DNA of 64,000 nt, taken from positions 338,347 to 402,346 of the forward strand of contig OZ244717.1 in the NCBI GenBank assembly GCA_965218975.1, written 5' to 3'. The stretch comes from Candidatus Oxydemutatoraceae bacterium. GTDB lineage: Bacteria > Pseudomonadota > Gammaproteobacteria > Poriferisulfidales > Oxydemutatoraceae. The translations under genes and the position numbers were made by a program. Below the pieces are notes generated by a model. It worked only from the letters and a program-made list of their open reading frames with translations, made no database searches and had not been told where the DNA came from. Positions 1,044 to 55,119 of this stretch are shown here, piece after piece; within the stretch, counting starts at the first letter, position 1, and each line of letters begins with the position of its first letter.

Positions 1044-1086
1044 ACAGCAGCGTTGAATAGCATTTGACGTATATACTTATCGGAAT

Positions 1087-3839: not shown

Positions 3840-3840
<1 letters not shown>
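1087..3840 (+). CDS. cas3: Cas3 helicase-nuclease, type I-G/I-U architecture (SF2 helicase N-terminal, HD nuclease C-terminal)
   Basis: Walker A DIPTGLGKTS and DEAH box VLDEAH lie in the N-terminal half. The C-terminal HD-domain signature is LHDKGK...RHEFGS...ATHHGYARP. The gene sits at the head of a cas operon, and its stop overlaps the next start by 1 nt. Confidence 0.9.
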
Positions 3841-5814
<1,974 letters not shown>

Positions 5815-5846
5815 CAAGAATCTCATTTAAGTTTCTTGAGTTAACT

Positions 5847-8036: not shown

Positions 8037-8521
8037 GCGCATAGAACTGTTGCCGAGACGAGCGTGTGAACACCTGCTATGGTGGCGCCCTAATTTGATT
8101 TTCCCTTTACAGGTTCCAAAACCCCTTTTGGCTATAATAGATACTATTATTAACGTATTAACGGCATCCTCGCGAGGACGATTATGGTCGGAGCTATCAA
8201 GCTCGGATCAGTTGGTTATGGACGCAACCAAGTAAACCGGAGTGTTTTTGTCGTTTGCCACCGAAACAGACTGATCATTGGACAACAATCGGAAAATCTG
8301 GTGAAAAAATATTGATTTACCAACAGGATATTGTGAAATATATACTAATTAGATTAGAAGAGGGGAATTTCGGCAATTCTTATCTAGTATCGGCTCGGGC
8401 GAAAATGATTCAGAGCGATGTCTTTTACGGAGTAATGAAAAGCCTTGCGAGAAAGAAAAAAGGTTGCCGGTCACGCTATCGTGATTGGTCGAAATAAAAC
8501 CCGTCGATTGCGCTTAGCGCA

Positions 8522-26560: not shown

Positions 26561-27040
26561 GTTTTGTGTTTGGTGGCAGATTGTCGGCGGATTGTGCCGG
26601 ATTATTGGTGGATTGTTGGTAGGTTGTGCCGGATTATTAGCAAAGTGCATGTCGTCCATGACGCGACTGGGTTCTGTCAACAAGCCCCAGCCCCGACATC
26701 CTTGTCGGGTCGTTCGCCGCTGAAAACCGTTCGGTTTTCCGGGCGCGGCTTACCCATGACGCGACTGGGTTCTGTCAACAAGCCCCAGCCCCGACATCCT
26801 TGTCGGGTCGTTCGCCGCTGAAAACCGATCGGTTTTCCGGGCGCGGCTTACCCATGACGAGACTGGGTTCTGTCAACAAGCCCCAGCCCCGACATCCCTG
26901 TCGGGTCGTTCGCCGCTGAAAACCGTTCGGTTTTCCGGGCGCGTCTCACCCGACAACGGACAGAAAGCACCGATCCGAATGTTGCTGCCGAATGCTTCCC
27001 CGGAAGCCCTTCAAGAATCCCATTTAGGGTGGCATCGTAC
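26561..27040 (+). repeat. Mosaic intergenic repeat cluster, copy 1: G/T-rich head, three ~97 bp units, conserved tail
   Basis: The head (26561-26657) has GGATTGT/GGATTAT motifs every 9-12 bp. Units start at 26658, 26755 and 26853. Each contains the hairpins CCCGACA-TCCT-TGTCGGG and GAAAACCG-TT-CGGTTTTC. The tail AAAGCACCGATCCGAATGTT...CCCATTTAGGGTGGCATCGTAC runs 26964-27040. Confidence 0.9.
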
Positions 27041-27166
27041 ATTCTTGACAAGCCCGCCGCTTTCCCCTAACCTGAGCTTAAGTTACGAGGCGCAGGCCTT
27101 ATTCTTTACTCGCCCGCGGGGAGGATCCTCGCGGGGACCTTCCAGCGGTAACAACAGGAGACTATT

Positions 27167-27376
27167 ATGGAAATTACTGCTGAGAAATTTGAGCAGGAGC
27201 TTCAAAAGCTTGAACAGAGGCTTGAGCGAAAGTTTGATACGAAGCTTGATACGAAGTTTGATAAGCTCGAAGCCAAACTCGACTCGGTGAAGACTTGGTT
27301 TGTCGGTTTAATGGTCACTACCGTTTTAGTCGTGACCGCGTTGATGACAACATTCGTCAACATTAACATGAACTAA
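27167..27376 (+). CDS. Small coiled-coil protein with a C-terminal transmembrane anchor (69 aa; DUF1640-like pattern by recollection)
   Basis: An AGGAG RBS lies 7-8 nt upstream. A heptad-like region, EQELQKLEQRLERKFDTKLDTKFDKLEAKLDS, is followed by the hydrophobic helix WFVGLMVTTVLVVTALMTTFV. The gene is flanked on both sides by the mosaic repeat clusters. Confidence 0.6.
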   Translation: MEITAEKFEQELQKLEQRLERKFDTKLDTKFDKLEAKLDSVKTWFVGLMVTTVLVVTALMTTFVNINMN

Positions 27377-27487
27377 CCCGGGCATCACCGCCTATTCTTA
27401 AAACTTGGTTTCGCGTCTGCTCGCGAAATCCTACTCTAAATTGATGATACAAACCATGGGTTTTTATCCTTAGCCTGCCTATCAGCA

Positions 27488-27851
27488 TCGTTCGCCGCTG
27501 AAAACCGTTCGGTTTTCCGGGCGCGGCTCACCTGTTTTGTGTTTGGTGGTAGATTGTCGGCGGATTGTGCCGGGTTGTTGGTGGATTGTTGGTAGGTTGT
27601 GCCGGATTATTAGCAAAGTGCATGTCGTCCATGACGAGACTTCGTGCTGTTAATGAACCCCAGCCCCGACATCCTTGTCGGGTCGTTCGCCGCCCGCTAA
27701 AAAAGGTGGCACCGTTCGGTTTTCCGGGGCGCGGCTCACCCATGACGAGACTTGGTTCTGTCAATGAGCCCCAGCCCCGACATCCCTGTCGGGTCGTTCG
27801 CCGCTGAAAACCCCGCTGAAAACCGTTCAGTTTTCCGGGCGCAGCTCACCC
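27488..27851 (+). repeat. Mosaic intergenic repeat cluster, copy 2: partial unit, head, two units, no tail
   Basis: The family and orientation match 26561-27040. The head sequence TGTTTTGTGTTTGGTGGTAGATTGTCGGCGGATTGTGCCGGGTTGTTGG... is followed by CATGACGAGACTT...CCCCGACATCCTTGTCGGG...TTCGGTTTTCCGGG units. Confidence 0.9.
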
Positions 27852-38136: not shown

Positions 38137-38673
38137 ATGATGGCATGGCGGCACGCAACACTTGGCTTCACTCTGGTAGAACTATTAATTACATTGACTC
38201 TGATCGCAATTGCATTAAACGGTGCGGTATACGGCTACCGTGACTGGCAGAAACGCACTTTGATTAGCGAACACTTAAACTTGTGGGTCAAGACTTTGCG
38301 CTTTGCTCGCAATTATGCGTTAATTTCAGGTAACGCAACGGTTCTTTGTCCGAGCTCAAGCATTGTCGGATGTAATGGGAACGATTATGCAAAAGGCTGG
38401 TTGGTCTTTGCAGAAAATTCTCATGGCGACGCGGGACGCTACGACAGCGAAGATCGCATCATTGCTCGCTCGGATGCTTGGCATTCCTCGCTAACATTAC
38501 ATAGCAATTTTAAAACGCCGGTGCGGTTTAACTCTTCGGGCAGAACCAATGCCAACGGGCGGTTTGTCCTCTGCATTGATCATGACCCCGGATTAATGCG
38601 CGGAATCTTTTTGATTCGTTCCGGACGGCTGCGTTTGACACGAAGCGGCGAACTCAACGAGTGTTTATCGTGA
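38137..38673 (+). CDS. fimT: Type IV pilus minor pilin, FimT/GspH family
   Basis: The prepilin N-terminus is GFTLVELLITLTLIAIAL. It is the first gene of a minor-pilin operon. ~178 aa. Confidence 0.7.
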   Translation: MMAWRHATLGFTLVELLITLTLIAIALNGAVYGYRDWQKRTLISEHLNLWVKTLRFARNYALISGNATVLCPSSSIVGCNGNDYAKGWLVFAENSHGDAGRYDSEDRIIARSDAWHSSLTLHSNFKTPVRFNSSGRTNANGRFVLCIDHDPGLMRGIFLIRSGRLRLTRSGELNECLS

Positions 38674-39176
38674 CGAACACGGCAAACCGCTTGCAGAAAT
38701 CAACATGCGGATTTGCTTTAGTGGAATTGCTGATCACTATTTTACTGCTAACGGTCGGTGTACTCGGCACTTTACATTTGCAACAATACGCCGCCATGAT
38801 AGAGCGTGATCTGCAATATCGCATTCGCGCAAGCGCCTTAATCGAAGACATCGTCCGCAAGATGGATGCGGCAGAACATCATGCCGATAATTTTTTAACC
38901 GGTTTCGGCGCACCGCCCGCAACTACTAATTGCTGGCAAACAAACTGCGGAGAAACTCAACGTCACCGCTTTCATCTCGCTCATTGGAAATGCCGCTTAG
39001 GGAGATGGCAAAATACAAGCGTTTGCCGCACCCGACTTCGCACTCGCGGATTACTGCCTTACGGTGACGGTGAAATTCAACGCGGCCATCAAACCTTGCG
39101 CATTGCCGTGCGCTGGCATGACAGTCGCCAACAGATACAAACACTGACCCACCATTATGTTCCGTTACATCCTTAG
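38661..39176 (+). CDS. pilV: Type IV pilus minor pilin PilV
   Basis: The prepilin N-terminus is GFALVELLITILLLTVGVLG. It lies between fimT and the pilW-like gene, with overlapping gene boundaries. Confidence 0.7.
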   Translation: MFIVTNTANRLQKSTCGFALVELLITILLLTVGVLGTLHLQQYAAMIERDLQYRIRASALIEDIVRKMDAAEHHADNFLTGFGAPPATTNCWQTNCGETQRHRFHLAHWKCRLGRWQNTSVCRTRLRTRGLLPYGDGEIQRGHQTLRIAVRWHDSRQQIQTLTHHYVPLHP

Positions 39177-40179
39177 CGCCAACAATCCTAAATTCTTAAG
39201 CATTGCGGGCACAGCTCTTCTCGAATGGATACTTGCCTCATTACTCGGGATTTTTCTGATAGTCGCATTAGAACGATTGTTTCAGACGATCGCTACCGAT
39301 CATAGCTTTAGGGAGGCACAATCCGCCGCGATAATAACGTTGGCAGTAACCGAGCAAACCGTCAGTAAACGCTTGCACCTTAGTACCGCGCTTCCTTGCG
39401 GTAACACCCCGGGACAAATCAACCTTGTGAACGACGGAAGCGCTCTCTATTGGCTTGACCTGTTTGCAAGTGCAAAACAAATACATCCCTACGATAGCGA
39501 GGAAGCATCAGCGATTCGTCGCCTCGGCACTGCTGCGGGCGAACGCGCCGCCGGCAGCGATGTATTAGTGATTCTCGCCGCACAACAACCGATTCGGGTT
39601 GTCACACACAATGTTGAAGAGGGCATATTAGTTTTAGCCGAAGCTTCCTTATTGCGGCCCGGTGAATTTGCGATCGTCTGCGACCCGCAAGTAACCGCGT
39701 TATTCCAAATCACCCGGCAATTTGATCAAGGGCAGCGATTGGCATATCGTGGTGGCGGCGTGTCGCCGGGCAATTGTGCAAACGATTTTGATATAAATCG
39801 GCCGTGTGCCCCGAACACTGCTTACATATTTTCCGACCACGCCTTGCTCACGGTGTTTGAACCGGCTGTTCTGTTTGTCGGGCAATCGCATCATCCCGGT
39901 CGTCGTTCACTTTATCGCGAACGGCTCAGTCTGACTCAATCCGGCGATGGCAACATTCGTGCCGGCATGCGCCGCGAGGAAATTATTGAAGGTGTTGAAA
40001 TTCTGCGTGCCCGCTCGCTAAGCGATAACGTGGTTGATTTTGGAATTGTCGCCGCCGCTCCATTACCGGTTGCCGACCTAACGCCCGCTTCCGTTCATTT
40101 GCTTGGCAGGGATGTTACATCATGGCTATCCGACCACGGAAGCTTATATGACGTAACGGAGTTCAGCGTTGCACTATAA
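39157..40179 (+). CDS. pilW: Type IV pilus assembly protein PilW-like
   Basis: The 340 aa protein has an N-terminal hydrophobic segment (TALLEWILASLLGIFLIVAL). The call rests on its position and size in the pilV-pilW-pilX order. Confidence 0.55.
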   Translation: MFRYILSANNPKFLSIAGTALLEWILASLLGIFLIVALERLFQTIATDHSFREAQSAAIITLAVTEQTVSKRLHLSTALPCGNTPGQINLVNDGSALYWLDLFASAKQIHPYDSEEASAIRRLGTAAGERAAGSDVLVILAAQQPIRVVTHNVEEGILVLAEASLLRPGEFAIVCDPQVTALFQITRQFDQGQRLAYRGGGVSPGNCANDFDINRPCAPNTAYIFSDHALLTVFEPAVLFVGQSHHPGRRSLYRERLSLTQSGDGNIRAGMRREEIIEGVEILRARSLSDNVVDFGIVAAAPLPVADLTPASVHLLGRDVTSWLSDHGSLYDVTEFSVAL

Positions 40180-40591
40180 ATATTTCATTGACCAATGTTT
40201 GGCGTATCCTCATTCGAAAACTCGTGGCAGTAGCCTGATTATTACTTTAGCATTACTGTTGATTTTGACACCTTTAGCGCTCGGCAGCATGTACCGATTG
40301 CAATATCAGTCTCAAACCTTATATGCGCTAGACAACAAACGCCGCCTGCAAACCGAAGTCAGGCAGCAACTCGTTCTAGCCGCCGCAATTGCGCAGACGC
40401 TGCCGGCAAATATCTCAGTAGCCAATTCAAATTGGCAAATCACCGCCTTAGCCAATACCGCCTCAACTCAAACCATCAGTTATTTTCAGCTCAGCGGGCA
40501 AGTTGAAAATGCTTCCGGTCGCGTTACCGCTCACGCCCTGTACCGACGCGGCATTGATCCGGCAATACGGATGTTTCAGTTTGCTCAATAG
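40169..40591 (+). CDS. PilX-like minor pilin (by position)
   Basis: The 140 aa protein has an N-terminal hydrophobic helix (SSLIITLALLLILTPLALG). It overlaps the pilW stop. Confidence 0.45.
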   Translation: MHYKYFIDQCLAYPHSKTRGSSLIITLALLLILTPLALGSMYRLQYQSQTLYALDNKRRLQTEVRQQLVLAAAIAQTLPANISVANSNWQITALANTASTQTISYFQLSGQVENASGRVTAHALYRRGIDPAIRMFQFAQ

Positions 40592-41006
40592 CTCGAATAA
40601 CGCGAAATACGGTTGCCGTATTGCAGCCTTCTCTTTGCTTGAACTGCTGTTTGCAATGGTCATCAGCGCCATTATTTTATCGTTGGCGATCAACACTTAT
40701 GATCGTTATCAAATAAAAATTCAATATTTAGACGGGCGCAATAAACTGCTTGAAATCATGCAGAAACAGCATCACCATTTTGCCGAACATTTAACTTTCA
40801 CCGACCAACTCGAATCTCTAGGGTTTTCCTCGATTGATCATGCCGTCTTATCCGATCACCAACATTTTCGCATCCGTGCCGCACCTTGCCAAACCGTGAT
40901 TGCTCAATGTGTCCGCTTAACCGCAACTGCAACCGATCCCACAAACGATGTTGACACTTTAACTTTGGACTCCATGGGGCGCCGAACTCCAGCAGATATC
41001 TGGTAG
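40581..41006 (+). CDS. Minor pilin, PilE/FimU-like
   Basis: The prepilin-like N-terminus is AAFSLLELLFAMVISAIILSLAI. The likely TTG start at 40581 is in frame with the listed ORF 40503-41006. Confidence 0.55.
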   Translation: MLNSSNNAKYGCRIAAFSLLELLFAMVISAIILSLAINTYDRYQIKIQYLDGRNKLLEIMQKQHHHFAEHLTFTDQLESLGFSSIDHAVLSDHQHFRIRAAPCQTVIAQCVRLTATATDPTNDVDTLTLDSMGRRTPADIW

Positions 41007-41070
41007 ATTGAACAAGTGAAAACAGGATTTATTAGTTTAAGGTAATTGCTTAATTTTTTATATATTTTGC

Positions 41071-41144
41071 ACGATGCCACCCTAAATGGGATTCTTGAAT
41101 AGCTTCGGGGGAAGCGTTCGGCAGAAAGCACCGATCCGAATGTT
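41071..41144 (+). repeat. Solo fragment of the mosaic-repeat tail: the arm is inverted relative to loci 26964-27040 and 52470-52546, and the core is in the same orientation
   Basis: ACGATGCCACCCTAAATGGGATTCTTGAA..GCTTCGGGGGAAGCGTTCGGCAG is the reverse complement of the tail arm. It is followed by the shared core AAAGCACCGATCCGAATGTT. Confidence 0.85.
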
Positions 41145-41162
41145 ATGGTCCTATACATATTG

Positions 41163-41191
41163 TTGACATGCTGTTGTAAAGTCAATATACT
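41163..41191 (+). promoter_or_regulatory. Sigma70-type promoter (TTGACA, 17 nt spacer, TATACT) upstream of the lipoprotein gene
   Basis: A perfect -35 lies at 41163-41168 and a near-consensus -10 at 41186-41191 with exactly 17 nt between them. The element is 85 nt upstream of the ATG at 41277. Confidence 0.6.
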
Positions 41192-41276
41192 TTGACGCAA
41201 ACCAAACAAGATGGCGCAACGCTTAGTGGCGTTACGGCGTTTAATAAAATACCCCGAATTCGAAGGAATGTAAGAT

Positions 41277-42803
41277 ATGAAAGAAATAACCCCGCGTCGT
41301 TTCCAGCGTGCCAGATTAACCGCCTTTCTCCTAATCAGCGGCTTTGCGTTAAGCGGTTGTTTTGATTCGGGCGGAAGCGGTTCAAGCGGCGCTTCGGTTG
41401 AGCGGTTTTTATACACGAGTAGCAATAGCAGTAGCGGGAATGAAATTATACGGATGGGTATTGCTTCCGACGGCACACTCAGTAGTAGCACCGTAACTCG
41501 AATACCGACCCATGGTTTTGGCGATGCCGACGATGACGACTTTGACGGGCAACATTCGTTGCATATCGTGCATAATTATCTGCTTGCCGTCAATGCCGGG
41601 GAAGATCCTGCATTTTCGGACATGAAATTTAATGGCGAGTTTGCCGCTCGCACCAGCGGCAACGGAACTATATCGGTATTTCGTTTTGAAGATGACGCTT
41701 TAACCCAAGTGCCGCAGGGAGAGGATTCTGCAAGCAGTAATGTGGAGTCGCACGGAATCAGACCGGTGAGTCTGACATCGGCAATAATCGACGATGTAAC
41801 ATGGGTATTAGTCGCAAACCAATACGACAATCCATTTTGTAAGTGGTTTGACGGCAAGGAGCCGCAATGTCCTGCTATTCCGTCGCCGCGTGAGGATGAC
41901 AAACCGAGTATTGATGCGTTTAAATTCAATCCCGAGGACGGACAATTGACTTATTCCGGCGAAATGGACCTTTTTAATTTCGGCGACAACGGCGGGCCGT
42001 CACAAGTTTCTTTTAGTCCGGACCGGAGCAAAGTTGCGGCAACGATGTGGGGAATACCGTTTCTAAGTTCCACAGGAGTGGAAACGATAGATATATTGCG
42101 GAGTACAACTGTCAATACTTTCCGTGAAGGTGGGGTGTTCGTATGGGATGTGGAAGTACAGGATTCCACTCAGGGTTCCAATTTGATGCTTATCAAGCGC
42201 CGCTTTTGGTTTGAACCGGGGGTTTCGGGTAGTATCGGGTTTGTTTGGAGTCCGGATAGCCGGTATCTTTATGTAACAAACTTCAATGTCCCGATCAACG
42301 GGGATAGGAACTTCAGCGTAGTTTCGTTGGAAGATACGTCTTCGGAACTGACTCCTGTCGATCAGTCGGGAACACGCGACAATGACGGCGCGATGCAGGT
42401 GCGACATGCCGATGAGGCCTGTTGGGCATGGCTTGAACCCGACGGGAGCAGGCTTTATACGGCAAGTTTTAGCGGAAACATCGTGTCGTTCTTTGACGTG
42501 ACACCCGAGACCGGCATGATTGATCACAATTCGTATTATCCTCGTCGTGACCAAGCGCTCCCATTTCCGATCGCTCCTTCTTTAAGAATATCCGAAGCTC
42601 CGGATACAAAGGATATTTACGTTTTATCGAACGGAACATTTCTCTATGTTTCCGGCGCATTAAATTCGCACACGATTTCAATTTATGCGGTGAACAGCAA
42701 GGGAACTTTAGTGGAAATAAATTCCTCGCCGTTTAGCGTCCCGTTTCCGGATGCAAGGACGGATAAGCGCGAAGAAGCATTTTTGGGTCTTGTCGGCTAC
42801 TAA
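41277..42803 (+). CDS. Lipoprotein with a beta-propeller (lactonase-like 7-bladed) repeat pattern
   Basis: The lipobox is LISGFALSGC. Recurrent blade-like segments are present (TISVFRFEDD, VSFSPDRSKV, VWSPDSRYLYVTNF, DGSRLYTASFSGNIVSFFDV, FLYVSGALNSHTISIYAV). Confidence 0.65.
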   Translation: MKEITPRRFQRARLTAFLLISGFALSGCFDSGGSGSSGASVERFLYTSSNSSSGNEIIRMGIASDGTLSSSTVTRIPTHGFGDADDDDFDGQHSLHIVHNYLLAVNAGEDPAFSDMKFNGEFAARTSGNGTISVFRFEDDALTQVPQGEDSASSNVESHGIRPVSLTSAIIDDVTWVLVANQYDNPFCKWFDGKEPQCPAIPSPREDDKPSIDAFKFNPEDGQLTYSGEMDLFNFGDNGGPSQVSFSPDRSKVAATMWGIPFLSSTGVETIDILRSTTVNTFREGGVFVWDVEVQDSTQGSNLMLIKRRFWFEPGVSGSIGFVWSPDSRYLYVTNFNVPINGDRNFSVVSLEDTSSELTPVDQSGTRDNDGAMQVRHADEACWAWLEPDGSRLYTASFSGNIVSFFDVTPETGMIDHNSYYPRRDQALPFPIAPSLRISEAPDTKDIYVLSNGTFLYVSGALNSHTISIYAVNSKGTLVEINSSPFSVPFPDARTDKREEAFLGLVGY

Positions 42804-44844: not shown

Positions 44845-47433
44845 ATGCCGCACCTTTTTGAAGCATTAGAACATTCTGCTGCCAGCTGGCGTAAGAAGGG
44901 TTATCCTTGTGACGCCTATCCGCTCATAGGCGAAATTCTTGCTTACCAAACGGAAAAGCAGGAGGACAGGTCAACCCCGAAGTTTCTGCGCGAACCCCAA
45001 TTCCTTGCCTTGGAGGTTTACTGGTATATCCGCCTTATACGGGAAACCCCTCATATCATAGACCTTTACAAGCATTATCACGGCAGCAATAAAGAAGATT
45101 TTTTTGATGCGCTTGGAATCTCAGTATCAAGAGATGCTTTGGAGTTTGCAGAAATAGACGGAATGATTGAAAAAATTAAAAGGGATGAGGGTTTTGTCAA
45201 AGACAAAAGAATTCAAGCGTTGCACGAAGCCGTCAAATTAGACTATCCGAGCTACATTTTTGCTTTGGCTATGGGTGCGGGCAAAACCGTTCTGATAGGG
45301 ACGATTATCGCAACCGAGTTTGCAATGTCGCTGCGTTATCCCAAAGATAGATTTATGAAAAATGCCCTCGTTTTTGCTCCGGGCACGACAATCATAGAAA
45401 GTTTGCGCGAACTCAGCGATATATCTTATGAGCAGATTTTGCCGCCCGGCCTTAACCGCGATTTCCTTGCTAATTTGAAGATTGAATTTCCGGGCAAGGA
45501 AAAAGACATACAGGCGCAGAGAAACAGCAGTTATAACTTGATTGTTACCAATGTTGAAAAAATCAACCTGCGTGCCAGGCAGCGGGAGAATCAAACACAA
45601 TTATCTTTTGAACACGAAGAAGCACAGGCGAATCTACGGCTTCAAAAGATCGCAAGCCTGCCCGGCCTCGGGGTTTTTTCAGATGAAGCGCACCACACAT
45701 ACGGAAACACCTTTGACAAACTCAAACGCGTGAGGGAAACCATCAACTACATACACGAGCAGACTGAAATAGTGGCGGTGATCAACACCACCGGAACGCC
45801 TTACTATAAAAAGCAACCCTTAAAGGAGGTGGTTGTCTGGTACGGGCTTGGCGACGGCATCAAAGATAATATCCTCAAAGGCCTCAATAACGGCATTCAT
45901 CTATACGATATCGGAGAGCAGCCGGAGGAAGAGGTTTTTAGGGACATCATTCGAGAATTTTGGGAGGGCTACGGAAATGTTTCTCTTCCCAACGGCGCAC
46001 CGGCAAAGATTGCCTTTTATTTCAAAACGCAACAGCATCTGGTAAGTTCAAAACAACAAATAGAGAAGGCGATGACGGAAATCGGGCAACCTGTTTCCCA
46101 TATATTAGTTAATACACAACAATCCGATGCAGCGCAGATCGACGAGTTTAAGCGTCTCAATAATCCCGAAACCCAGAAGCGAGTTATTCTGTTGATCGGC
46201 AAAGGGGTTGAAGGTTGGAACTGCCCCAGCCTGTTTTCCTGCGCACTGATAAAGGAGCAGACGAGTAAGAATTACGTTTTGCAAGCATCAACGAGATGTT
46301 TGCGGCAGGTTCCGGGCAATAGCCTTCCGGCGAAGATATTTCTAGATTCCGTCAACGCAACGATTCTAGACAAAGAATTACAAAATAACTTCGGCACCGA
46401 TCTTGATAGACTTAGCGGGGAAACGGGAGACAAAGAAACCATCACTCTGCGTATTCTTAAAACAGAACTGCCGAAACTGGAAATCACCCGCACTGTTAAA
46501 AGAGCTATAAGAAAAGGGGAAATAAACAGAAATATACGTTTGGAGAAACCGAAGGCGCAAAAACTGCCCGTTGTATTGCGCAGCATTTGCACCCCTGATT
46601 TCAGCGGTCCAAAGGAAATATTAATGCCGACAGGACAAACGAAGGAGCTACCGGCGGGAAGACGTGTTACCGGTTGCCATACTGCCGCTTGGAGAATCGC
46701 TTCACGATACCATGTACCGGTTCTACCGATCTTGAAAAAACTCAAAAGCTTTTATCCGAAAGGAGTAATGCCGGATAGTCATTTATACGGGCTTTTTCAG
46801 CAGGTTGAACGGCAACAAACAAGTTACACAACGGTTGAAGAAAAAGTAACCGAGGCGATGGCGTTGATCCGAGTTCAGGATGAGAACGGAGAAGGCATCT
46901 TTGATAAGGATGAAAAGGGGGTTTTTGTTCACCGTTTGCGGTTGCTTAAAAGGACTGTTGAACGTATGGAAGAAGGCGGATTGTTTGCAGAGAGGGAAAA
47001 TTATGAGGACCAGCACGAGTTGAGTTTTCACTATACCCCCTACAACTTTGACAGCAAACCGGAACGTTCCCTGTTCCGAAGGATTTTATCCATGTTGAAT
47101 ACAGAACCTTATGACGTGGAAGTGTTTCTGTTCACCGGTGGGCTAACAGACCCGAAGAAAACTGATTTCCATTTTGAATATCTGGGCGAAGACAAGCGGT
47201 ATCATCGCTACTTTCCGGATTTTGTGATTGCCAAAAAGACCGGTGAGTTTTATATTGTCGAGGTGAAAGAAGATAAGCGCGAGGATAAAACTGTGGAGGC
47301 CAAGAAAAAGGCAGTTGAGAAACTGCAGAATTTGCCAACGAACAAGTTCGGATACCATATTATCTATGCTTCTACAGCGACGCTAGGCGTGAGAGAAACC
47401 ACGCCGATTCAGAATTGGATACAAAAAAACTAA
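44845..47433 (+). CDS. Type III restriction enzyme Res-like subunit (SF2 DEAH helicase plus C-terminal PD-(D/E)xK nuclease)
   Basis: Walker A is ALAMGAGKTVLIG and the DEAH box is VFSDEAHHTYG. The helicase C-terminal part includes QASTRCLR. The C-terminal nuclease motif is YFPDFVIAKKTGEFYIVEVKEDK. Confidence 0.8.
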   Translation: MPHLFEALEHSAASWRKKGYPCDAYPLIGEILAYQTEKQEDRSTPKFLREPQFLALEVYWYIRLIRETPHIIDLYKHYHGSNKEDFFDALGISVSRDALEFAEIDGMIEKIKRDEGFVKDKRIQALHEAVKLDYPSYIFALAMGAGKTVLIGTIIATEFAMSLRYPKDRFMKNALVFAPGTTIIESLRELSDISYEQILPPGLNRDFLANLKIEFPGKEKDIQAQRNSSYNLIVTNVEKINLRARQRENQTQLSFEHEEAQANLRLQKIASLPGLGVFSDEAHHTYGNTFDKLKRVRETINYIHEQTEIVAVINTTGTPYYKKQPLKEVVVWYGLGDGIKDNILKGLNNGIHLYDIGEQPEEEVFRDIIREFWEGYGNVSLPNGAPAKIAFYFKTQQHLVSSKQQIEKAMTEIGQPVSHILVNTQQSDAAQIDEFKRLNNPETQKRVILLIGKGVEGWNCPSLFSCALIKEQTSKNYVLQASTRCLRQVPGNSLPAKIFLDSVNATILDKELQNNFGTDLDRLSGETGDKETITLRILKTELPKLEITRTVKRAIRKGEINRNIRLEKPKAQKLPVVLRSICTPDFSGPKEILMPTGQTKELPAGRRVTGCHTAAWRIASRYHVPVLPILKKLKSFYPKGVMPDSHLYGLFQQVERQQTSYTTVEEKVTEAMALIRVQDENGEGIFDKDEKGVFVHRLRLLKRTVERMEEGGLFAERENYEDQHELSFHYTPYNFDSKPERSLFRRILSMLNTEPYDVEVFLFTGGLTDPKKTDFHFEYLGEDKRYHRYFPDFVIAKKTGEFYIVEVKEDKREDKTVEAKKKAVEKLQNLPTNKFGYHIIYASTATLGVRETTPIQNWIQKN

Positions 47434-48389
47434 TGGAACGCCACTCATTCTCGCCCGACAACCGAACAGGCCGGAAAGTTTTCCATGGACTGTATTACCG
47501 CAGGCGCATCCTGCTTGCCATTCTGGCGCAAAGAAAGAGGCGCATAGAGAAACTGCGTTTGCAGAAGCTGCTCTTCCTTTTCACTCAACAGCAAGAAAAG
47601 CCGGCATACTATTTTCTTCCTTATAAATATGGAAGCTACTCATTTCAGGCCTCCGAAGACGCAAGAATACTCGCTTGCCATTACGGTTTGATAATAAATA
47701 GCCGGGACGACTCTTATTCCTTGAACAAAAAAAACGTTAAAGAAGAATATTTTGCACTAAAAGACACGGACCACGATCGGCTGGCACATGTATATAAGCA
47801 ATACGGACCTCTCTCAACAAAGGAGTTAATTTACCAAGTTTACAAACAGTATCCGTACTATGCGGTCAGAAGTGAAATAATTGGTGAGCAGCGCTTCAAG
47901 GCGTTACATAAGAGCATAAAGAAAGAGCAGCTACAATTCCAAACAAGCAACGGTCGCCGTTGTCTCTACACAATCGGTTATGAAGGCATAAGCATAGAGC
48001 AATATATTTCCCGCCTGATGAGAAACGGCATATCCGCTCTGGTGGATGTCAGACGCAACCCCTTCAGCATGAAGTACGGATTTTCCAAAACTCAGTTACG
48101 GCGTATCACTAAAAAATTTGACATAGAGTATTACCACATACCTGAGCTCGGGGTCGAAAGCGACCGTCGCGTGAACTTGACGACCCGCGCCGACTATAAT
48201 CAACTCTTCAGAATGTATCGTAGATCATTGCGGCAAGAGGAGGAAAGTCTGCAATGTATTCAAACTATTTTGCGTGAACATTTGCGTACGGCGCTGACGT
48301 GCTTTGAAAAAAAACACGAGTGGTACCATAGAGGAATTTTATCCGAAGCAATTCATGCTCAATGCGGTATAACCGTAAAGCACTTTTGA
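47415..48389 (+). CDS. DUF488-domain protein with an uncharacterised ~170 aa N-terminal extension
   Basis: The C-terminal half is YTIGYEGISIEQYISRLMRNGISALVDVRRNPFS.KYGFSK..L........IEYYHIPELG ... ALTCFEKKHEWYHRGIL, the DUF488 pattern with W-Y-HR in place of the usual C-HR. The N-terminal part (LQKLLFLF...PYKYGSYS) is unassigned. The gene overlaps the res stop. Confidence 0.65.
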   Translation: MDTKKLMERHSFSPDNRTGRKVFHGLYYRRRILLAILAQRKRRIEKLRLQKLLFLFTQQQEKPAYYFLPYKYGSYSFQASEDARILACHYGLIINSRDDSYSLNKKNVKEEYFALKDTDHDRLAHVYKQYGPLSTKELIYQVYKQYPYYAVRSEIIGEQRFKALHKSIKKEQLQFQTSNGRRCLYTIGYEGISIEQYISRLMRNGISALVDVRRNPFSMKYGFSKTQLRRITKKFDIEYYHIPELGVESDRRVNLTTRADYNQLFRMYRRSLRQEEESLQCIQTILREHLRTALTCFEKKHEWYHRGILSEAIHAQCGITVKHF

Positions 48390-49007
48390 AAGGCGTGGGA
48401 ATCCAAAAAATAAAGGCAAAACAGTTTACAGATTTTTCTCATGCGCCTATTCCAAACCCGGAACGTCAAAAATACCAAGCAAAGAGAGAGAACATTCTGA
48501 ATAGTCGGAAGCAGGGGTCGCTGATAGATGATGGCCTGAGAGATGCCGAGCTGGTATCTGCCCCCGACTATCGTTTCTACTATCACTTTGACGATCTAAA
48601 CGGCAAAAACAGTAAAATGATGATAGCAGATTGGGAAATACAAGCGTTATACAGAAATTGTTTGCGAGGGAAAAATAAGCAACAAGCGCTTGAGGATGTG
48701 CGCAAAAAATACTCTGGCGGGCCGACAGACTCGAACAAAACCGATTTCCATTTTTGAATATCTAGGCGAAGACAAGCAGGATCATCGCTACTTTCCGGAT
48801 TTTGTGATTGTCAAAAAGACCGGCGAGTTTTATATTGTCGAGGTGAAATCGAAAGATGAGCGCGGGGATGAAACCGTAGAAGCAAAGAAGAAAGCGGTGG
48901 AAAAGTTACAAAATCTACAAGCTGATAAGGTTAAATATAATATCATTTACACAAAGACGAACACAATAGGGGTTGAGGACATTGACATCAATACGATTGT
49001 GGATTAG
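48362..49007 (+). pseudogene. Frameshifted gene whose 3' part duplicates the Res C-terminal PD-(D/E)xK domain
   Basis: ORFs 48362-48757 and 48690-49007 join if one T of the T5 run at 48751-48755 is removed. The paralogous site at ~47170 has T4. The joined product ...GGPTDSNKTDFHFEYLGEDKQDHRYFPDFVIVKKTGEFYIVEVK...VEAKKKAVEKLQNL parallels Res ...GGLTDPKKTDFHFEYLGEDKRYHRYFPDFVIAKKTGEFYIVEVK...VEAKKKAVEKLQNL. Confidence 0.7.
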
Positions 49008-49022
49008 GTAGGAGTCGGATGA

Positions 49023-49893
49023 ATGCGACCACTTGATGAGTATATCAAATCTCACCTGAATGATTACATTAAAGAAATCGGTGAGGCATTGGGAGGGGTT
49101 GACACAATGTCAATAGTTAGCCCGATTATTCCCGGTGTTGATCAAAAAGTTAGAAATGTTATTGATATGAAGCAAGAGAAAAAATCCGCAATCGCTGTGG
49201 TTCTACAGACTCCTGGTGGCGTAGTTGAAATTGTTGAAAGGATGGTTGAAGTAATCAGAAATTTTTATACTGAAGTAAGTAGTAGTGATAGTACCAGACC
49301 GGGCAATGTCTGCCGGAACTGTTTTTACGTTGAGTGCAGACAGAATAATGATGGACTATTTTTCTCGATTGGGTCCGATTGACCCACAAATTGTTAAAGA
49401 CGAAAAACTTGTACCCGCTCTCTCTTACTTGAATCAGTATGAAATTTTGAATAAAAAAGCTAAACAGGGCCAACTCACCACGGCAGAGTATGCCATGCTT
49501 GACAAACTTGATTTGGGTGAATTGTATCGATTTGAGCAAGCCCGCGAACTCTCCATAGAACTTCTCAAGAAGTGGCTTTTTACATACAAATTTAAAGATT
49601 GGAGAAAGACAGAGAGTAGAAAACAGGCGGTTACAGAAGAAATGAAAGAGGAGCGTGCCGAAGAGATTGCTCAAAAATTAAATGATACAAACAGATGGCA
49701 TTCGCACGGACGAGGAATAGATATTTTCACTTTAAGGGAAGAATTAAATTTGAGAATTGAAGACTATTCGGAAAACAAAAAATTAAGCAAATATATACAG
49801 AATTACTATAATCTTCTAATTGATTATTTGGAACGAGAGAGGGTGGGTTCTTTCGTTCACACGGAGGAATATTTCTCGGAGGGATATTTTTAG
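49023..49893 (+). pseudogene. ClpP/SppA-fold serine protease (SDH_sah-like), split by a 1 nt frameshift
   Basis: ORF 49023-49382 (..VLQTPGGVVEIVERMVEVIRNFYTEV) and ORF 49285-49893 (VVIVPDRAMSAGTVFTLSADRIMMDYFSRLGPIDPQI..) join if one A at 49277-49278 (GAAGTAAGTAGTAGTG) is deleted. The MSAGT...LGPIDPQ pattern fits that family by recollection. Confidence 0.6.
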
Positions 49894-50088
49894 ACATGGG
49901 GGAAAAATAAATCGACTGGAGAAAATTCCATTTAGTCAGTTGTCCAAAAACAATCCGAAAATATCAACATCTGTTGTTACCCAACATCGTGAGTTGGAGG
50001 AAAAATTGAAAAACATAGGTGTGCGTAAAAAAGCTCGCTACACGCTTTCTCCCCCACTTGGCGAGACCATTAATCTATCAAAAATAGT

Positions 50089-51810
50089 TTGAAGTCTCTA
50101 AAAATCACCCCAGTTAAAGGTCGCCCGATGCTACACTGGATCGGTAAGAAGCCGCTGGATGTTGTCCGCCATTTTCCGGCGCAGTTATGCGAGAGTATCG
50201 GCATTGAAAACCCGCCTGTTGAGCCGTCGCACAAGAAATTTATTAAAAGCGATTACAACCTGCTCTTTCACGGCGACAACAAAGAAGTTCTTTCCTCTCT
50301 TTTGATTGCCGGGTTTCGGGGCAAGATAGATCTGATTTACATTGACCCGCCGTTTGATTCCGGCGCGGATTATGTCCGCAAGGTGACGTTGCGCGGGCAG
50401 TCTGCGAAACTTGCGGGTGAGGGGCATACTTTTATTGAGCAGGTGCAATACGAAGACATTTGGGCCAATGATAACTATTTGCAGTTTATGTATGAACGAC
50501 TGATTCTGATGCGCGAGTTGTTGAGTGATAAGGGAAGTATTTATCTGCATTGCGATTGGCACAAAAGCCACCATCTGCGGTTTTTATTGGATGAAGTATT
50601 TGGTGCGGAAAACTTTATAAATGAGATTGTTTGGTATTACAAAGATGCATCGGGAATTCTTAAGAAAGGTTTTAGAAAAAAGCACGACGGCATTTTTATT
50701 TATTCTAAGAGTACAGATTTTTATTTTGACGTAGATTCTGTTCGTCAGGAGTATGGAGATTCAACGAAAAAAGCGGCAGAAACAGGAACATTTTCTTTTG
50801 GCAGACCTACAAGGATTAATCCTTTGGGGAAGTATCCCGATGATGTTTGGGAAATAGCTATAATTAACAGTCAAGCAAAAGAAAGACTCAATTTCCCCAC
50901 CCAAAAACCCGAAGCACTTTTAGAGCGTATTATCAAAGCCTCCAGCAACGAAGGTTCCATCGTCTTGGACTGCTTTTGCGGCAGCGGCACAACCGCCGCA
51001 GTCGCCGAAAAGCTGGGACGGCGCTGGATTATGGCGGACTTGAACAAAGGCGCGATTCAAACGACCATCAAGCGATTGCAAAGTGTTATCAAAGAAAAGA
51101 ATGGCGACCTTGCGGAAAAAAACGGACGCGGGTTGATTCATTATCGGGTCAACAACTACGATTTCGCAAAGCAGGCCGAACTCAAGAAAATCATCGTCTC
51201 TAAATACGGTATTCAAACAGACCACAAGGATTTGTTCTTTGACGGAACGGCCGACGGCCGGTTGGCAAAGATTACCGATTTGGACAAGCCGCTGACGCGG
51301 TTGGATATTCAGATTATCAAAGACGAAATTGCCGATAACCGGCCGGACGAAACACGACACATCATCGTTTTCTGTAATGGTTCCGAGTTGGAATTGATCA
51401 AAGAGCTTAACGAAGAAATAAGACCGATCAATAAAATTAGCATCTGCGATATCCGGCAGGACGGAATGATTACCGATCAGCTGGCGCAAGCGGAGATTAA
51501 AATTACGAAAAGAGGCAAAAAGGCGATTATCAAAATTGAAGATTACATCAGCCCTACGATACTTGCCCGACTGGAGATTGACCGCAGTTTGTTTAATGAG
51601 CAGGTCGAAGATTTCCGATCGCAAATAGATTGCGTATTGATTGATACCAATTACAACGGCAAGGATTTCAGAATAACGGAAAGCGACTTGCCTGAGAAAA
51701 AGACCGGTCTCATCAGAGGGGAATACACACTGAACTTGCCCCGAGCAGGCGTCAAAGTGGCGGTAAAAATCGTGGATATGCTCGGAGAGGAAGTTTTGGC
51801 GATTAAGTAG
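50089..51810 (+). CDS. Adenine-specific DNA methyltransferase, beta-class (type III Mod-like)
   Basis: Motif [16 protein letters not shown], precedes motif [38 protein letters not shown] lies between them. The 573 aa protein has a C-terminal extension. Confidence 0.8.
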
Positions 51811-51911: not shown

Positions 51912-52546
51912 CTTTGTGTTCGGTGTGGGGTTGTCGGTGGATTGTGCCGGATTGTCGGCGGATTGTTGGCGGATTGTTGGCAAAGTGCCTGTCGTCCATG
52001 ACGCGACTTAGTTCTGTCAACAAGCCCCAGCCCCGACGTCCTTGTCGGGTCGTTCGCCGCTGAAAACCGTTCGGTTTTCCGGGCGCGTCTCACCCTGTCG
52101 TCCATGGCGAGACTTGGTTCTGTCAATGAACCCCAGCCCCGACGTCCTTGTCGGGTCGTTCGCCGCTGAAAACCGTTCGGTTTTCCGGGCGCGTCTCACC
52201 CGTTTTGTGTTTGGTAGCAGATTATTGGCAAAGTGCTTGGTGCAGGTTTGTCGGCGGATTGTGCCGGGTTGTTGGCAAAGTGCCTGTCGTCCATGACGAA
52301 ACTTAGTTCTGTCAATAAACTCCAGCCCCGACATCCTTGTCGAGTCGTTCGCCGCTGAAAACCAGTAGGTTTTCCGGGCGCGGCTCACCCAGCCCCGACA
52401 TCCTTGTCGGGTCGTTCGCCGCTGAAAACCGATCGGTTTTCCGGGCACGTCTCACCCGGCAACGGACAGAAAGCACCGATCCGAATGCTACTGCCGCACG
52501 CTTCCCCAGAAGCTCTTCAAAAATCCCATTTAGGGTGGCATCGTAC
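51912..52546 (+). repeat. Mosaic intergenic repeat cluster, copy 3: head, two units, second head, full and truncated units, tail
   Basis: The family and orientation match 26561-27040. The tail AAAGCACCGATCCGAATGCT...CCCATTTAGGGTGGCATCGTAC runs 52470-52546. It is followed by TTGGCA (52553-52558), a 17 nt spacer and TATATT (52576-52581). Confidence 0.9.
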
Positions 52547-52745
52547 ACGGTGTTGGCAAGTGTTGTCGTTTAATGTATATTAGCAACCTGCTACAGCACT
52601 ACGTGTCCGCCCTGTCGGGCGGCCCGTGAATATAAAACCGTTCGAAAATAAGCGGGAATACTTCTTTACGTAGTGTTTGTAGCAATCGCCTGACTCCTTA
52701 AGTCAGGCGATTAAGCAGATTTAATTTAATCTATGGAGAAATATA

Positions 52746-54761
52746 ATGAAACTATTAATTCGAACGGCTACTCTTTTAATGGCCTTTGCTTTTATTCTCA
52801 CCTCGACAACGCAAGCGCAAAACGCCCCGGCGGATCAAGCGGAGTTCGAGAGGCTGGTTGCAGGTATGCAGATAGAGGCTGCTGTTGGTAGCACCATGAC
52901 CACACTGCAATTCCCGAATCCAGGGCGTATCCTAGAAATTAGTGAAGAAGGAAACTTCCTTGGTAATTATCAGTACACAAATACCGGCGACAATACGGGA
53001 ATGCTCACTTACACCTACGACGCGAGCGGTAACAATGCGGCTATGGAGCAAACCGAGGGTACACTCACGTTCACTTCGGCGACAATGGGAACATTCGAGA
53101 GTACCTATTTCTATGTCACAGCGAGCGAACCCCGTGTGATGAGCAGTGGCACATTTGAAATCGTCGACGCCGAACCTCCAGCTGTGTTTGCCCCACTGGA
53201 TCAAGCGGAGTTCGAGAGGCTGGTTGCAGGTATGCAGATAGAGGGGATTGATGCTCGCGGCAGCATGGGCACACTGCAATTCCCGAATCCAGGGCGTATC
53301 CTGGAAATTGTGGAAGAAGGAAACTTCTTTGGTGATTATCAGTACACAAATACCGGCGACAATACGGGAATGCTCACTTACACCTACGACGCGAGCGGTA
53401 ACAATGCGGCTATGGAGCAAACCGAGGGTACACTCACGTTCACTTCGGCGACAATGGGAACATTCGAGAGTACCTATTTCTATGTCACAGCGAGCGAACC
53501 CCGTGTGATGAGCAGTGGCACATTTGAAATCGTCGACGCCGAACCTCCAGCTGTGTTTGCCCCACTGGATCAAGCGGAGTTCGAGAGGCTGGTTGCAGGT
53601 ATGCAGATAGAGGCTGCTGTTGGTAGCACCATGACCACACTGCGATTCCCGGACTCGGGCCGTATCCTAGAAATTAGTGAAGAAGGAAACTTCCTTGGTA
53701 ATTATCAGTACACAAATACCGGCGACAATACGGGAATGCTCACTTACACCTACGACGCGAGCGGTAACAATGCGGCTATGGAGCAAACCGAGGGTACACT
53801 CACGTTCACTTCGGCGACAATGGGAACATTCGAGAGTACCTATTTCTATGTCACAGCGAGCGAACCCCGTGTGATGAGCAGTGGCACATTTGAAATCGTC
53901 GACGCCGAACCTCCAGCTGGGTTCGCCCCGCAGGATCAAGCGGAGTTCGAGAGGCTGGTTGCAGGTATGCAGATAGAGGGGATTGATGCTCGCGGCAGCA
54001 TGGGCACACTGCAATTCCCGAATCCAGGGCGTATCCTGGAAATTGAAGAAGAAGGAATCTTCCTTGGTAATTATCAGTACACAAATACCGGCGGCAATAC
54101 GGGAATGCTCACTTACACCTACGACGCGACCGGTAACAATGCGGCTATGGAGCAAACCGAGACTATACTCACGTTCACTTCGGCGACAATGGGAACATTC
54201 GAGAGTACCTATTTCTATGTTGAAGCAAGCGAAACCCCCGAGGTGAACACAGGTACATTTGAAATCGTTGCTGCTCCGGTCGCCCCGGCGACTCAAGCGG
54301 AGTTCGAGAGGCTGGTTACAGGTATGCAGATAGAGGCTGCTGTTGGTAGCACCATGACCACACTGCGATTCCCGGACTCGGGCCGTATCCTAGAAATTAG
54401 TGAAGAAGGAAACTTCCTTGGTAATTATCAGTACACAAATACTACCGCCGTTTCCACCAGTGTAGGAAGCCTCACTTACACCTACGACGCGAGCGGTAAC
54501 GATCCGGCTATGGAGTACGTCACGGTCAACCTCGTGTTCACTTCGGCGACAATGGGAGCATTCGAGAGTACCTATTTCTATGTTGAAGCAAGCGAACCCC
54601 GTGTGATGAGCAGTGGCACATTTGAAATCGTCCCTATTCCTGGTAGCAGCGGTGGCGGTGGCGGCAGCGGCAGCGCGGGTTTGTGGCTGTTATTGCTACT
54701 GCTTGCATCAGTTGTCGGCAATCGCTGTGCTCCTGTCATTTTTCGGACCGGATCATCCTAG
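52746..54761 (+). CDS. Secreted tandem-repeat protein (five ~122 aa repeats) with a glycine-rich plus hydrophobic C-terminal sorting-like tail
   Basis: The signal peptide is MKLLIRTATLLMAFAFILTSTTQA. Repeat starts (DQAEFERLVAGMQIE) lie at nt 52833, 53199, 53568, 53934 and 54291. The C-terminus is GSSGGGGGSGSAGLWLLLLLLASVVGNR..., which looks GlyGly-CTERM-like. Confidence 0.85.
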   Translation: MKLLIRTATLLMAFAFILTSTTQAQNAPADQAEFERLVAGMQIEAAVGSTMTTLQFPNPGRILEISEEGNFLGNYQYTNTGDNTGMLTYTYDASGNNAAMEQTEGTLTFTSATMGTFESTYFYVTASEPRVMSSGTFEIVDAEPPAVFAPLDQAEFERLVAGMQIEGIDARGSMGTLQFPNPGRILEIVEEGNFFGDYQYTNTGDNTGMLTYTYDASGNNAAMEQTEGTLTFTSATMGTFESTYFYVTASEPRVMSSGTFEIVDAEPPAVFAPLDQAEFERLVAGMQIEAAVGSTMTTLRFPDSGRILEISEEGNFLGNYQYTNTGDNTGMLTYTYDASGNNAAMEQTEGTLTFTSATMGTFESTYFYVTASEPRVMSSGTFEIVDAEPPAGFAPQDQAEFERLVAGMQIEGIDARGSMGTLQFPNPGRILEIEEEGIFLGNYQYTNTGGNTGMLTYTYDATGNNAAMEQTETILTFTSATMGTFESTYFYVEASETPEVNTGTFEIVAAPVAPATQAEFERLVTGMQIEAAVGSTMTTLRFPDSGRILEISEEGNFLGNYQYTNTTAVSTSVGSLTYTYDASGNDPAMEYVTVNLVFTSATMGAFESTYFYVEASEPRVMSSGTFEIVPIPGSSGGGGGSGSAGLWLLLLLLASVVGNRCAPVIFRTGSS

Positions 54762-54786
54762 AAGGTTGAGATATAGCGCATAAAAT

Positions 54787-54824
54787 CCGTATTGTCGCCT
54801 AGAAATAGGCGGCAATACGGTTTA
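54787..54824 (+). terminator. Rho-independent terminator candidate after the repeat-protein gene
   Basis: The hairpin CCGTATTGTCGCC-TAGAAATA-GGCGGCAATACGG is followed by TTTA, 26 nt after the stop codon. Confidence 0.6.
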
Positions 54825-54860: not shown

Positions 54861-55119
54861 GTTTTTGTGTGGGTCACTCTCGGCCGGAGGCAAAGTGCTT
54901 AGTCCAGGTTTGTCGGCGGGTTGTGCCGGGTTGTTGGCAAAGTACATGTCGTCCTTGACGAGACTTGGTGCTGTCAATGAACTCCAGCCCCGACGTCCTT
55001 GTCGAGTCGTTCGCCGCTGAAAACCAGTAGGTTTTCCGGGCGCGTCTCACCCAGCCCCGACGTCCTTGTCGAGTCGTTCGCCGCTGAAAACCAGTAGGTT
55101 TTCCGGGCGCGTCTCACCC
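54861..55119 (+). repeat. Mosaic intergenic repeat cluster, copy 4: head, one full and one truncated unit, no tail
   Basis: The family and orientation are the same. The CAGCCCCGACGTCCTTGTCGAGTCGTTCGCCGCTGAAAACCAGTAGGTTTTCCGGGCGCGTCTCACCC sequence is present twice. Confidence 0.9.

Follow-up and report, generated by a model that had tools for sequence, protein, structure and literature searches.

The stretch of DNA analysed here, a window of 64,000 nt (64 kb) on contig OZ244717.1, carries on its forward strand a gene at positions 52746–54761 that encodes a protein of 671 amino acids with a signal peptide, five tandem repeats and a Gly/Ser-rich tail. It can be stated with high confidence that this is a real gene, and that it encodes an exported protein in which five calycin-like barrels of an unannotated family follow one another in tandem and a hydrophobic anchor closes the C-terminus, the array being homogenised by recombination. 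The forward-strand open reading frame (ORF) is taken as the gene because both the homologues and a confident predicted fold lie on that strand; antisense ORFs at 52932–53573 and 53667–54296 were rejected as shadows of the repeats. An identical protein is already present in a public collection (P0001). The parts of the gene are as follows (AF2, AlphaFold2).

52746–54761, +: coding sequence, 671 amino acids, ATG start, TAG stop included
52746–52817, +: Sec-type signal peptide, residues 1–24, MKLLIRTATLLMAFAFILTSTTQA then QN, without a lipobox Cys (by inspection)
52824–53189, +: module 1, residues 27–148, type A loop; N-terminal helix and eight-stranded barrel predicted (hmmsearch envelope, AF2)
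53190–53558, +: module 2, residues 149–271, type B loop (hmmsearch envelope, two-module AF2)
53559–53924, +: module 3, residues 272–393, type A loop (hmmsearch envelope, repeat alignment)
53925–54281, +: module 4, residues 394–512, type B loop; 3′ part and linker diverged (hmmsearch envelope, alignment)
54282–54632, +: module 5, residues 513–629, type A loop; the most diverged module (hmmsearch envelope, alignment)
52875–52904, +: hypervariable β1–β2 loop of module 1 (EAAVGSTMTT, type A; column comparison, family entropy)
53241–53273 (B), 53610–53639 (A), 53976–54008 (B) and 54333–54362 (A), +: equivalent loops of modules 2–5
54633–54680, +: Pro and Gly/Ser-rich spacer PIPGSSGGGGGSGSAG (GlyGly-like motif, including GGGGGSGSAG)
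54681–54719, +: Leu-rich hydrophobic helix LWLLLLLLASVVG, 7 Leu in 13 residues
54720–54758, +: C-terminal tail NRCAPVIFRTGSS; contains two Arg and the sole Cys in the chain

Cleavage of the signal peptide is predicted, again by inspection, between TQA and QN. The mature protein is of unusual composition, having no Lys, 30 Met residues (6 per module, at sites mostly occupied by K or T in homologues), a net charge of approximately −62 and a sole Cys, in the tail; no Trp occurs within the module.

Tandem Repeats Finder returned a single array (52832–54632, period 369, 4.9 copies, 88% matches, score 2707), and units cut at 52833, 53199, 53568, 53934 and 54291 lie in register (366, 369, 366, 357 and 342 nt). 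The ORF, the repeat finder and the in-register units agree with an earlier sequence-only reading of this DNA, in which an exported protein of five near-identical repeats had been placed at the same starts. Nucleotide identity was 97.3% between repeats 1 and 3, 95.1% between repeats 1 and 2, 92.4% between repeats 2 and 3 and 88.1% between repeats 2 and 4, while repeat 5 shared 75–81% with the other repeats (lowest, approximately 75%, with repeats 2 and 4) and its module has a 3-aa insertion within an NTGxNTG turn that is conserved in the other modules. Exact stretches of 279 nt (offset 369), 259 nt (offset 735), 219 nt (offset 366) and 124 nt (offset 723) were present, lengths far above those expected by chance.

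The A-B-A-B-A alternation proposed in that reading is real, and is confined to one loop. Type A, IEAAVGSTMTTL(Q/R)FP, occurs in repeats 1, 3 and 5, and type B, IEGIDARGSMGTLQFP, in repeats 2 and 4, the loops themselves reading EAAVGSTMTT (A) and EGIDARGSMGT (B). The A/B difference is limited to alignment columns ~41–80, where repeats 2 and 4 are identical, repeats 3 and 5 are identical, and repeat 1 is one base removed from repeat 3. Across columns 81–120, repeats 3 and 5 are again identical (RFPDSG), but repeat 1 has the QFPNPG version of repeats 2 and 4 and is therefore an A/B hybrid. Across columns 121–360, repeats 1, 2 and 3 are 100% identical and repeats 4 and 5 diverge; linker 1 is the same as linker 2 and differs from linker 3. 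Some of the conversion tracts in the array span only ~25 nt.

The array is thus a patchwork of conversion tracts, in which the 369-nt register is no weaker than the 735-nt one, and the alternating loop is the sole part to escape homogenisation. Recent expansion or ongoing gene conversion, as had been suggested, is supported by the exact stretches of up to 279 nt and by the mosaic pattern. The further suggestion, that the unit of duplication was a double repeat of ~735 nt, fared less well: a recent A-B duplication of that length predicts identity of repeat 1 with repeat 3, and of repeat 2 with repeat 4, throughout and including the linkers, and this was not seen (the A/B difference covers ~40 columns, repeat 1 is a hybrid and linker 1 equals linker 2), so a 735-nt unit is weakly supported. 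There may once have been an A-B unit, although today's sequence can be explained without it. As for a diversity-generating retroelement having produced the A and B loops, no reverse transcriptase was matched among the neighbouring genes scanned with NCBIfam, a scan that was not exhaustive.

Structure prediction for module 1 alone, using AF2 and an alignment of 17 sequences (model m180764b8a8fb), gave a predicted local distance difference test (pLDDT) of 90 and a predicted template modelling score (pTM) of 0.81, with a helix at residues 5–12 followed by eight β-strands. The module is therefore predicted to be an eight-stranded antiparallel up-and-down β-barrel of calycin type (lipocalin/avidin-like), in keeping with the lipocalin-like fold that the sequence-only reading had put forward for testing on one repeat. 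A two-module model (mdab222ea68da) reached pLDDT 85 and pTM 0.58; as pTM was this low despite the pLDDT, the orientation of one barrel to the next is undefined, and the modules are best modelled as beads on a short Pro-rich string. Foldseek matched the barrel to Tp0751 (E 1e-3, template modelling score 0.6), and the natural proteins of similar fold have 9–16% sequence identity to it. At the sequence level no member of the lipocalin family was matched in Pfam at E≤10 by the whole protein or by 17 modules, and profile matches among PDB sequences were to unrelated proteins and non-significant (7jlz, E 0.043; another, E 1.1).

No credible match in Pfam or NCBIfam came from the whole protein, its tail or the 17 modules. 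An SfsA_N match (27.5 bits) arose by adding up five weak matches of 18 residues, each non-significant by itself; a ComGD match (39.7 bits) fell below its cut-off of 70; and an RHS/YD match was sub-threshold or an additive artefact. No known adhesin or repeat domain model in either database covers the module, artefacts being the only matches. That reading had also described the repeat as belonging to no recognised family, which holds in so far as no Pfam or NCBIfam model exists, but the module is no orphan. A first homology search gave 19 hits, 18 of them other proteins (E to 9e-49, 34–52% identity over single or double modules), and a family profile derived from 17 modules retrieved 616 of 1.84 billion protein cluster representatives at E≤1e-3, of which 313 reached E≤1e-10 and 62 reached E≤1e-30. 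The window protein was the top-scoring match, all five of its repeats matching the profile over its full length.

The family module is ~115 aa long (consensus AP.DQAAF..GNY.Y.NTG.NTG.LTYTYD..LTFTSAT.GTF..G.FE.V), and the residues invariant in the family (P2, G14, F30, R35, G47, Y49, Y51, D66 and G89) are present in the modules of the window protein. Approximately two thirds of family modules are shorter and share a conserved pair of Cys; those of the window protein are of the longer, Cys-free form (230 modules). Among these 230 modules, entropy is highest (~3.3 bits) at positions 17–29 (from the end of strand 1 through the loop to strand 2), which also hold nearly all insertions, and it is here that the A and B versions differ. 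Copy number in 170 family proteins was one in 93, two in 48, three in 26, five in 2 and six in 1. With 90% module coverage, the window protein is the sole nearly all-module protein among those with more than three copies. A pair of modules at least 87% identical was found in 11 of 77 multi-copy family proteins, the median being 39%.

No close relative of the window protein came to light. Its own sequence cluster has a single member, and scans of metagenomes, using protein patterns and a 21-mer common to all five repeats, found none; the sole contig with the 21-mer (L018, Ga0179593_1005875, positions 840–860) was a chance match on the other strand of an unrelated membrane-protein gene. Among GTDB species representatives, 17 homologous loci were recovered. 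The metagenome-assembled genomes carrying the module belonged to Opitutales, Latescibacterota, Terriglobia, Vicinamibacterales, Bryobacterales and Binatia, a spread that, at the level of phyla, covers Acidobacteriota, Verrucomicrobiota and Latescibacterota, with Binatia. The only recurrent cluster in these loci consisted of other ORFs resembling module-bearing proteins, often adjacent to them. The neighbours of the window gene (YaaA, Mpl, FadE, thiolase and type IV minor pilins) suggest a proteobacterium, and since the genomes with modules are of other phyla, the gene may have been acquired horizontally. The proportion of G and C at third codon positions (GC3) was 0.545 in the repeat gene and 0.45–0.53 in other genes of the window, which is no convincing anomaly as a signal of horizontal transfer.

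Clues to the role of the module come from its partners. In 85 family members the partner domains were CARDB (12), Big_9 (7), LRR (6), fn3 (6) and He_PIG (4), together with Big_2, dockerin, PPC, PKD, NHL and cadherin-like domains; catalytic domains were almost absent. Some homologues end in tails resembling IPTL-CTERM (P0009, 20.7 bits against a cut-off of 20.5; 3/85 at E≤0.01), and P0085 is built like the window protein, signal peptide first, then tandem modules, then a transmembrane helix with an Arg tail, although its motif differs (VPTLP). From these partner domains and tails the module appears to behave as an extracellular ‘choice-of-anchor’ binding or structural unit. The β1–β2 loop is its putative determinant of specificity, because the A/B differences fall at the most variable, indel-prone site in the family.

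Three further unannotated C-terminal domains recur in module-bearing proteins. One (..GEYRLVAEITI.G..G.Y.S.N..) was seen in homologues P0007, P0029, P0035, P0062, P0080 and others, a second (..GSRFNQYLITFVANRR.DGSWEI..) in P0011–P0016, and a third, Cys-rich one (..RGARYFS...CQ..CVLN...NIQ.CVW.CE) in P0032, P0067, P0075 and others.

After the last module, the chain of the window protein continues into spacer, helix and tail, an arrangement that the sequence-only reading had likened to GlyGly-CTERM sorting signals. Much of what characterises such signals is present: five consecutive Gly with Ser on either side, a motif without Cys, a Leu-rich core (Leu content in the GlyGly-CTERM family is 34%; PMC3237569), one or more basic residues and a signal peptide, with no further transmembrane segment. 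A GlyGly-CTERM is, however, defined as having a basic cluster followed by 0–5 residues to the end of the protein (PMC3237569), and here a lone Arg precedes 11 further residues (CAPVIFRTGSS), the second Arg standing five residues from the end. The GlyGly-CTERM model TIGR03501 gave no match at E≤10 to the whole protein, to the 48-aa tail or to the tail cut after the first Arg. The MYXO-CTERM model (TIGR03901) scored 13.9–15.7 bits against a cut-off of 20, the invariant Cys being absent before the helix, and the IPTL-CTERM and PEP-CTERM models did not match the tail. The proposed likeness held, then, for the tripartite architecture, and broke down at the TIGR03501 and MYXO-CTERM models and at the 11 residues after the first Arg. 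It had also been tied to conservation of the tail in homologues, which is absent: the window protein stands alone with its Gly/Ser-rich tail among 170 family proteins, the others having IPTL-CTERM-like tails, dockerins or other domains. In the +1 frame, the sequence from just after ..ASVVG (54720–54783) reads IAVLLSFFGPDHPRRLRYSA and then a stop, giving a longer transmembrane helix followed by an RRLR basic cluster; this may reflect a single-base assembly error or coincidence.

Taken together, the evidence points to an envelope- or surface-tethered multivalent binding protein as the probable identity of the gene product. The gene, its mosaic of repeats, its place in the family, the fold prediction and the domains that accompany the module in homologues are shown, while export, topology, surface display and binding are inferred. 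The Sec system would export the chain, with removal of the signal peptide after TQA, and the C-terminal helix would then tether it to the membrane so that all five barrels lie on the non-cytoplasmic side. The tail could be no more than an anchor, or it could be a tripartite sorting signal and undergo cleavage, the protein being passed to the cell surface like GlyGly-CTERM proteins of the VesB type. The barrels would act as multivalent binding modules whose specificity comes mainly from the hypervariable β1–β2 loop, presented alternately in versions A and B, and the near-identity of the array would be upheld by unequal recombination together with short-tract gene conversion. Several observations weigh against this account. 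The fold does not firmly indicate a ligand, since the structural matches lie at 9–16% identity; a place at the surface is suggested only by the domains that accompany the module in homologues of other phyla; the tail fails every curated sorting-signal model and runs on past the helix for longer than GlyGly-CTERM tails do; no rhombosortase, exosortase or paralogous tail was found among the scanned ORFs of the window; and no neighbouring gene was conserved in the 17 homologous loci. A more ambitious form of the same account would have the module represent an undescribed family of extracellular ligand-binding barrels with loop-set specificity, the two loops kept strictly alternating by selection, despite homogenisation of the DNA beside them to 100% identity, so as to make a bi-specific multivalent binder, the tail a new, unmodelled class of sorting signal, and the module acquired by a proteobacterium from soil phyla; the conjunction of all these is decidedly doubtful.

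The tail may work like a GlyGly-CTERM signal, and the protein could be imagined as a true member of that group, cleaved by rhombosortase, lipid-modified at its new C-terminus, secreted by the type II pathway and retained on the outer surface as VesB is. The tripartite tail, the helix with its early aromatic residue (Trp), the basic residue, the signal peptide and the absence of another transmembrane segment speak for this, as do neighbouring genes suggestive of a proteobacterium, the group in which the system is commonest, and the admission by its authors that the general GlyGly-CTERM hidden Markov model misses divergent members (PMC3237569). Nevertheless, it is unlikely, given a TIGR03501 model without a match in any of the three forms of query, one Arg past the helix trailed by 11 residues (a Cys among them) instead of 0–5, and neither a rhombosortase nor a second such tail in the window. 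The protein has not been filed as GlyGly-CTERM on the same grounds. No curated signal matches the tail, and the helix might instead sit in the inner membrane and hold the acidic barrels in the periplasm, never to reach the surface, where they might be, for example, a spacer, a buffer of cations or metals, or a carrier of small hydrophobic molecules. Such a topology is the presumed default for a signal peptide combined with a C-terminal transmembrane helix in a diderm, which the host should be, since its gene neighbourhood suggests a proteobacterium; the calycin fold is typical of carriers of small ligands, and 6 Met per module, no Lys and a charge of approximately −62 are compatible with metal or cation binding. 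Yet the great majority of the family's partners are extracellular adhesion or Ig-like modules, dockerins and exosortase-type tails, and a hydrophobic core of 13–15 residues is short for a stable anchor, which leaves a purely periplasmic protein improbable as well.

That the locus is in part an artefact of assembly is very unlikely. In that case repeats 1–3, with their exact stretches of 219–279 nt, would have been collapsed or expanded, or an indel near 54720 would conceal a longer helix and the RRLR cluster; exact repeats of up to 279 nt, the more canonical transmembrane helix and basic cluster of the +1 frame, and a single-member cluster for which no close relative was found for comparison are what invite the suspicion. 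Set against it are the size of the contig (2.08 Mb), which suggests long reads, capable of spanning 1.8 kb, distinguishing sites in every repeat, a frame open throughout with modules that fold confidently, and no homopolymer at the putative indel site.

The gene for the tethered multivalent binder preferred here is flanked by candidate signals for its expression and by two clusters of repeats resembling repetitive extragenic palindromes (REPs).

51988–52457, +: upstream REP-like cluster, 67/106-nt elements in direct orientation
52553–52581, +: weak sigma-70-like promoter candidate (TTGGCA, 17-nt spacer, TATATT; 10/12 matches; consensus scan)
52684–52712, +: perfect hairpin with a 12-bp stem, AATCGCCTGACT...AGTCAGGCGATT, in the 5′ leader ~35 nt ahead of the start codon (RNA fold)
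52735–52738: GGAG ribosome-binding site, 7 nt 5′ of the ATG
54787–54820, +: hairpin with a 15-bp stem (−26 kcal/mol) followed by TTTAT, just past the stop codon (RNA fold)
54984–55119, +: downstream REP-like cluster, two 100% identical copies of the same 67-nt element, oriented as upstream

The hairpin ahead of the gene could be a terminator of the upstream unit or a structure of the leader, and the one past the stop codon, although missed by a simple terminator scanner, is likely an intrinsic terminator. The earlier statement that repeat clusters bracket the gene was correct, the REP-like elements at 51988–52457 and 54984–55119 lying on either side of it. Their 20-mer core, GTCGTTCGCCGCTGAAAACC, is limited to three clusters within the window, each on the + strand (26709–27812, 51988–52457 and 54984–55119), and the two around the repeat gene, being direct repeats, could mediate its deletion or excision.

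Immediately upstream of the repeat gene lies a block resembling a restriction-modification system (44845–51810), with an 862-aa ORF weakly similar to restriction endonucleases of the BPTD_3080 family and a 573-aa adenine-specific DNA methyltransferase; at 41–45% GC the block lies below the repeat gene. Elsewhere in the window, positions 38137–42803 hold a cluster of minor pilins of type IV pilus or type II secretion system-like character (N-termini like those of GspH/FimT, PilV and ComGE), and a CRISPR array at 10750–15981 (+) comprises 73 repeats of 36 nt with a period of ~72 nt (Rfam RF01330, CRISPR-DR16), upstream of which long ORFs at 48–10243 may be cas genes.

The interest of the locus lies chiefly in the module, a compact and confidently foldable domain family of ~600 sequence clusters for which no Pfam or NCBIfam model exists, and which recurs in large surface proteins of the poorly studied soil phyla Acidobacteriota, Latescibacterota and Verrucomicrobiota, and in Binatia. 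As the cleanest representative, five modules and nothing else, the window protein is a good starting point for structure determination, for work on ligands and for a new domain entry. Two loop variants alternating in an otherwise homogenised array amount to a small natural experiment in selection versus gene conversion, and, were the tail a processed sorting signal, the catalogue of such signals would be extended. Current understanding is not overturned; this is an incremental addition to a familiar kind of protein.

Comparable surface proteins include the Rib/alpha-C, Aap/SasG and Bap families, which, like the window protein, combine a signal peptide and a C-terminal anchor with near-identical repeats arranged head to tail and homogenised by recombination. 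Those proteins, however, have Ig-like or G5/E folds and LPXTG anchors and are of Gram-positive bacteria, whereas the module here is predicted to be a calycin-like barrel and the genes around it suggest a proteobacterial and so a diderm host.

In fold, the module resembles Tp0751 of Treponema pallidum (pallilysin; PDB 5jk2), a lipocalin-fold adhesin (PMC5040251), but the two share 13–14% identity and no detectable sequence homology, and Tp0751 is a lipoprotein with one domain instead of a tandem array; whether it is exposed at the surface is disputed (PMC7521688). The functionally uncharacterised Burkholderia protein 5hal and MoaF-like protein 4q51 share 11–12% identity with the module, and neither is a repeat protein or anchored. 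Compared by description only, Aeromonas AimA (PMC6219842) is likewise a secreted bacterial protein with tandem calycin-like domains, but these are two diverged lipocalin-like domains and there is no C-terminal anchor. With respect to the tail, the nearest parallel is provided by substrates of the GlyGly-CTERM/rhombosortase system such as VesB, a GlyGly-CTERM protein of Vibrio cholerae kept on the outer surface (PMC6219818). The window protein departs from these in failing the TIGR03501 model, in its longer post-helix tail and isolated Arg, and in that no rhombosortase was matched among the scanned ORFs of the window. It resembles them in its signal peptide, Gly/Ser motif, Leu-rich helix and basic residue(s), and their tails sit on passenger domains that are otherwise unrelated (PMC3237569, PMC6219818).

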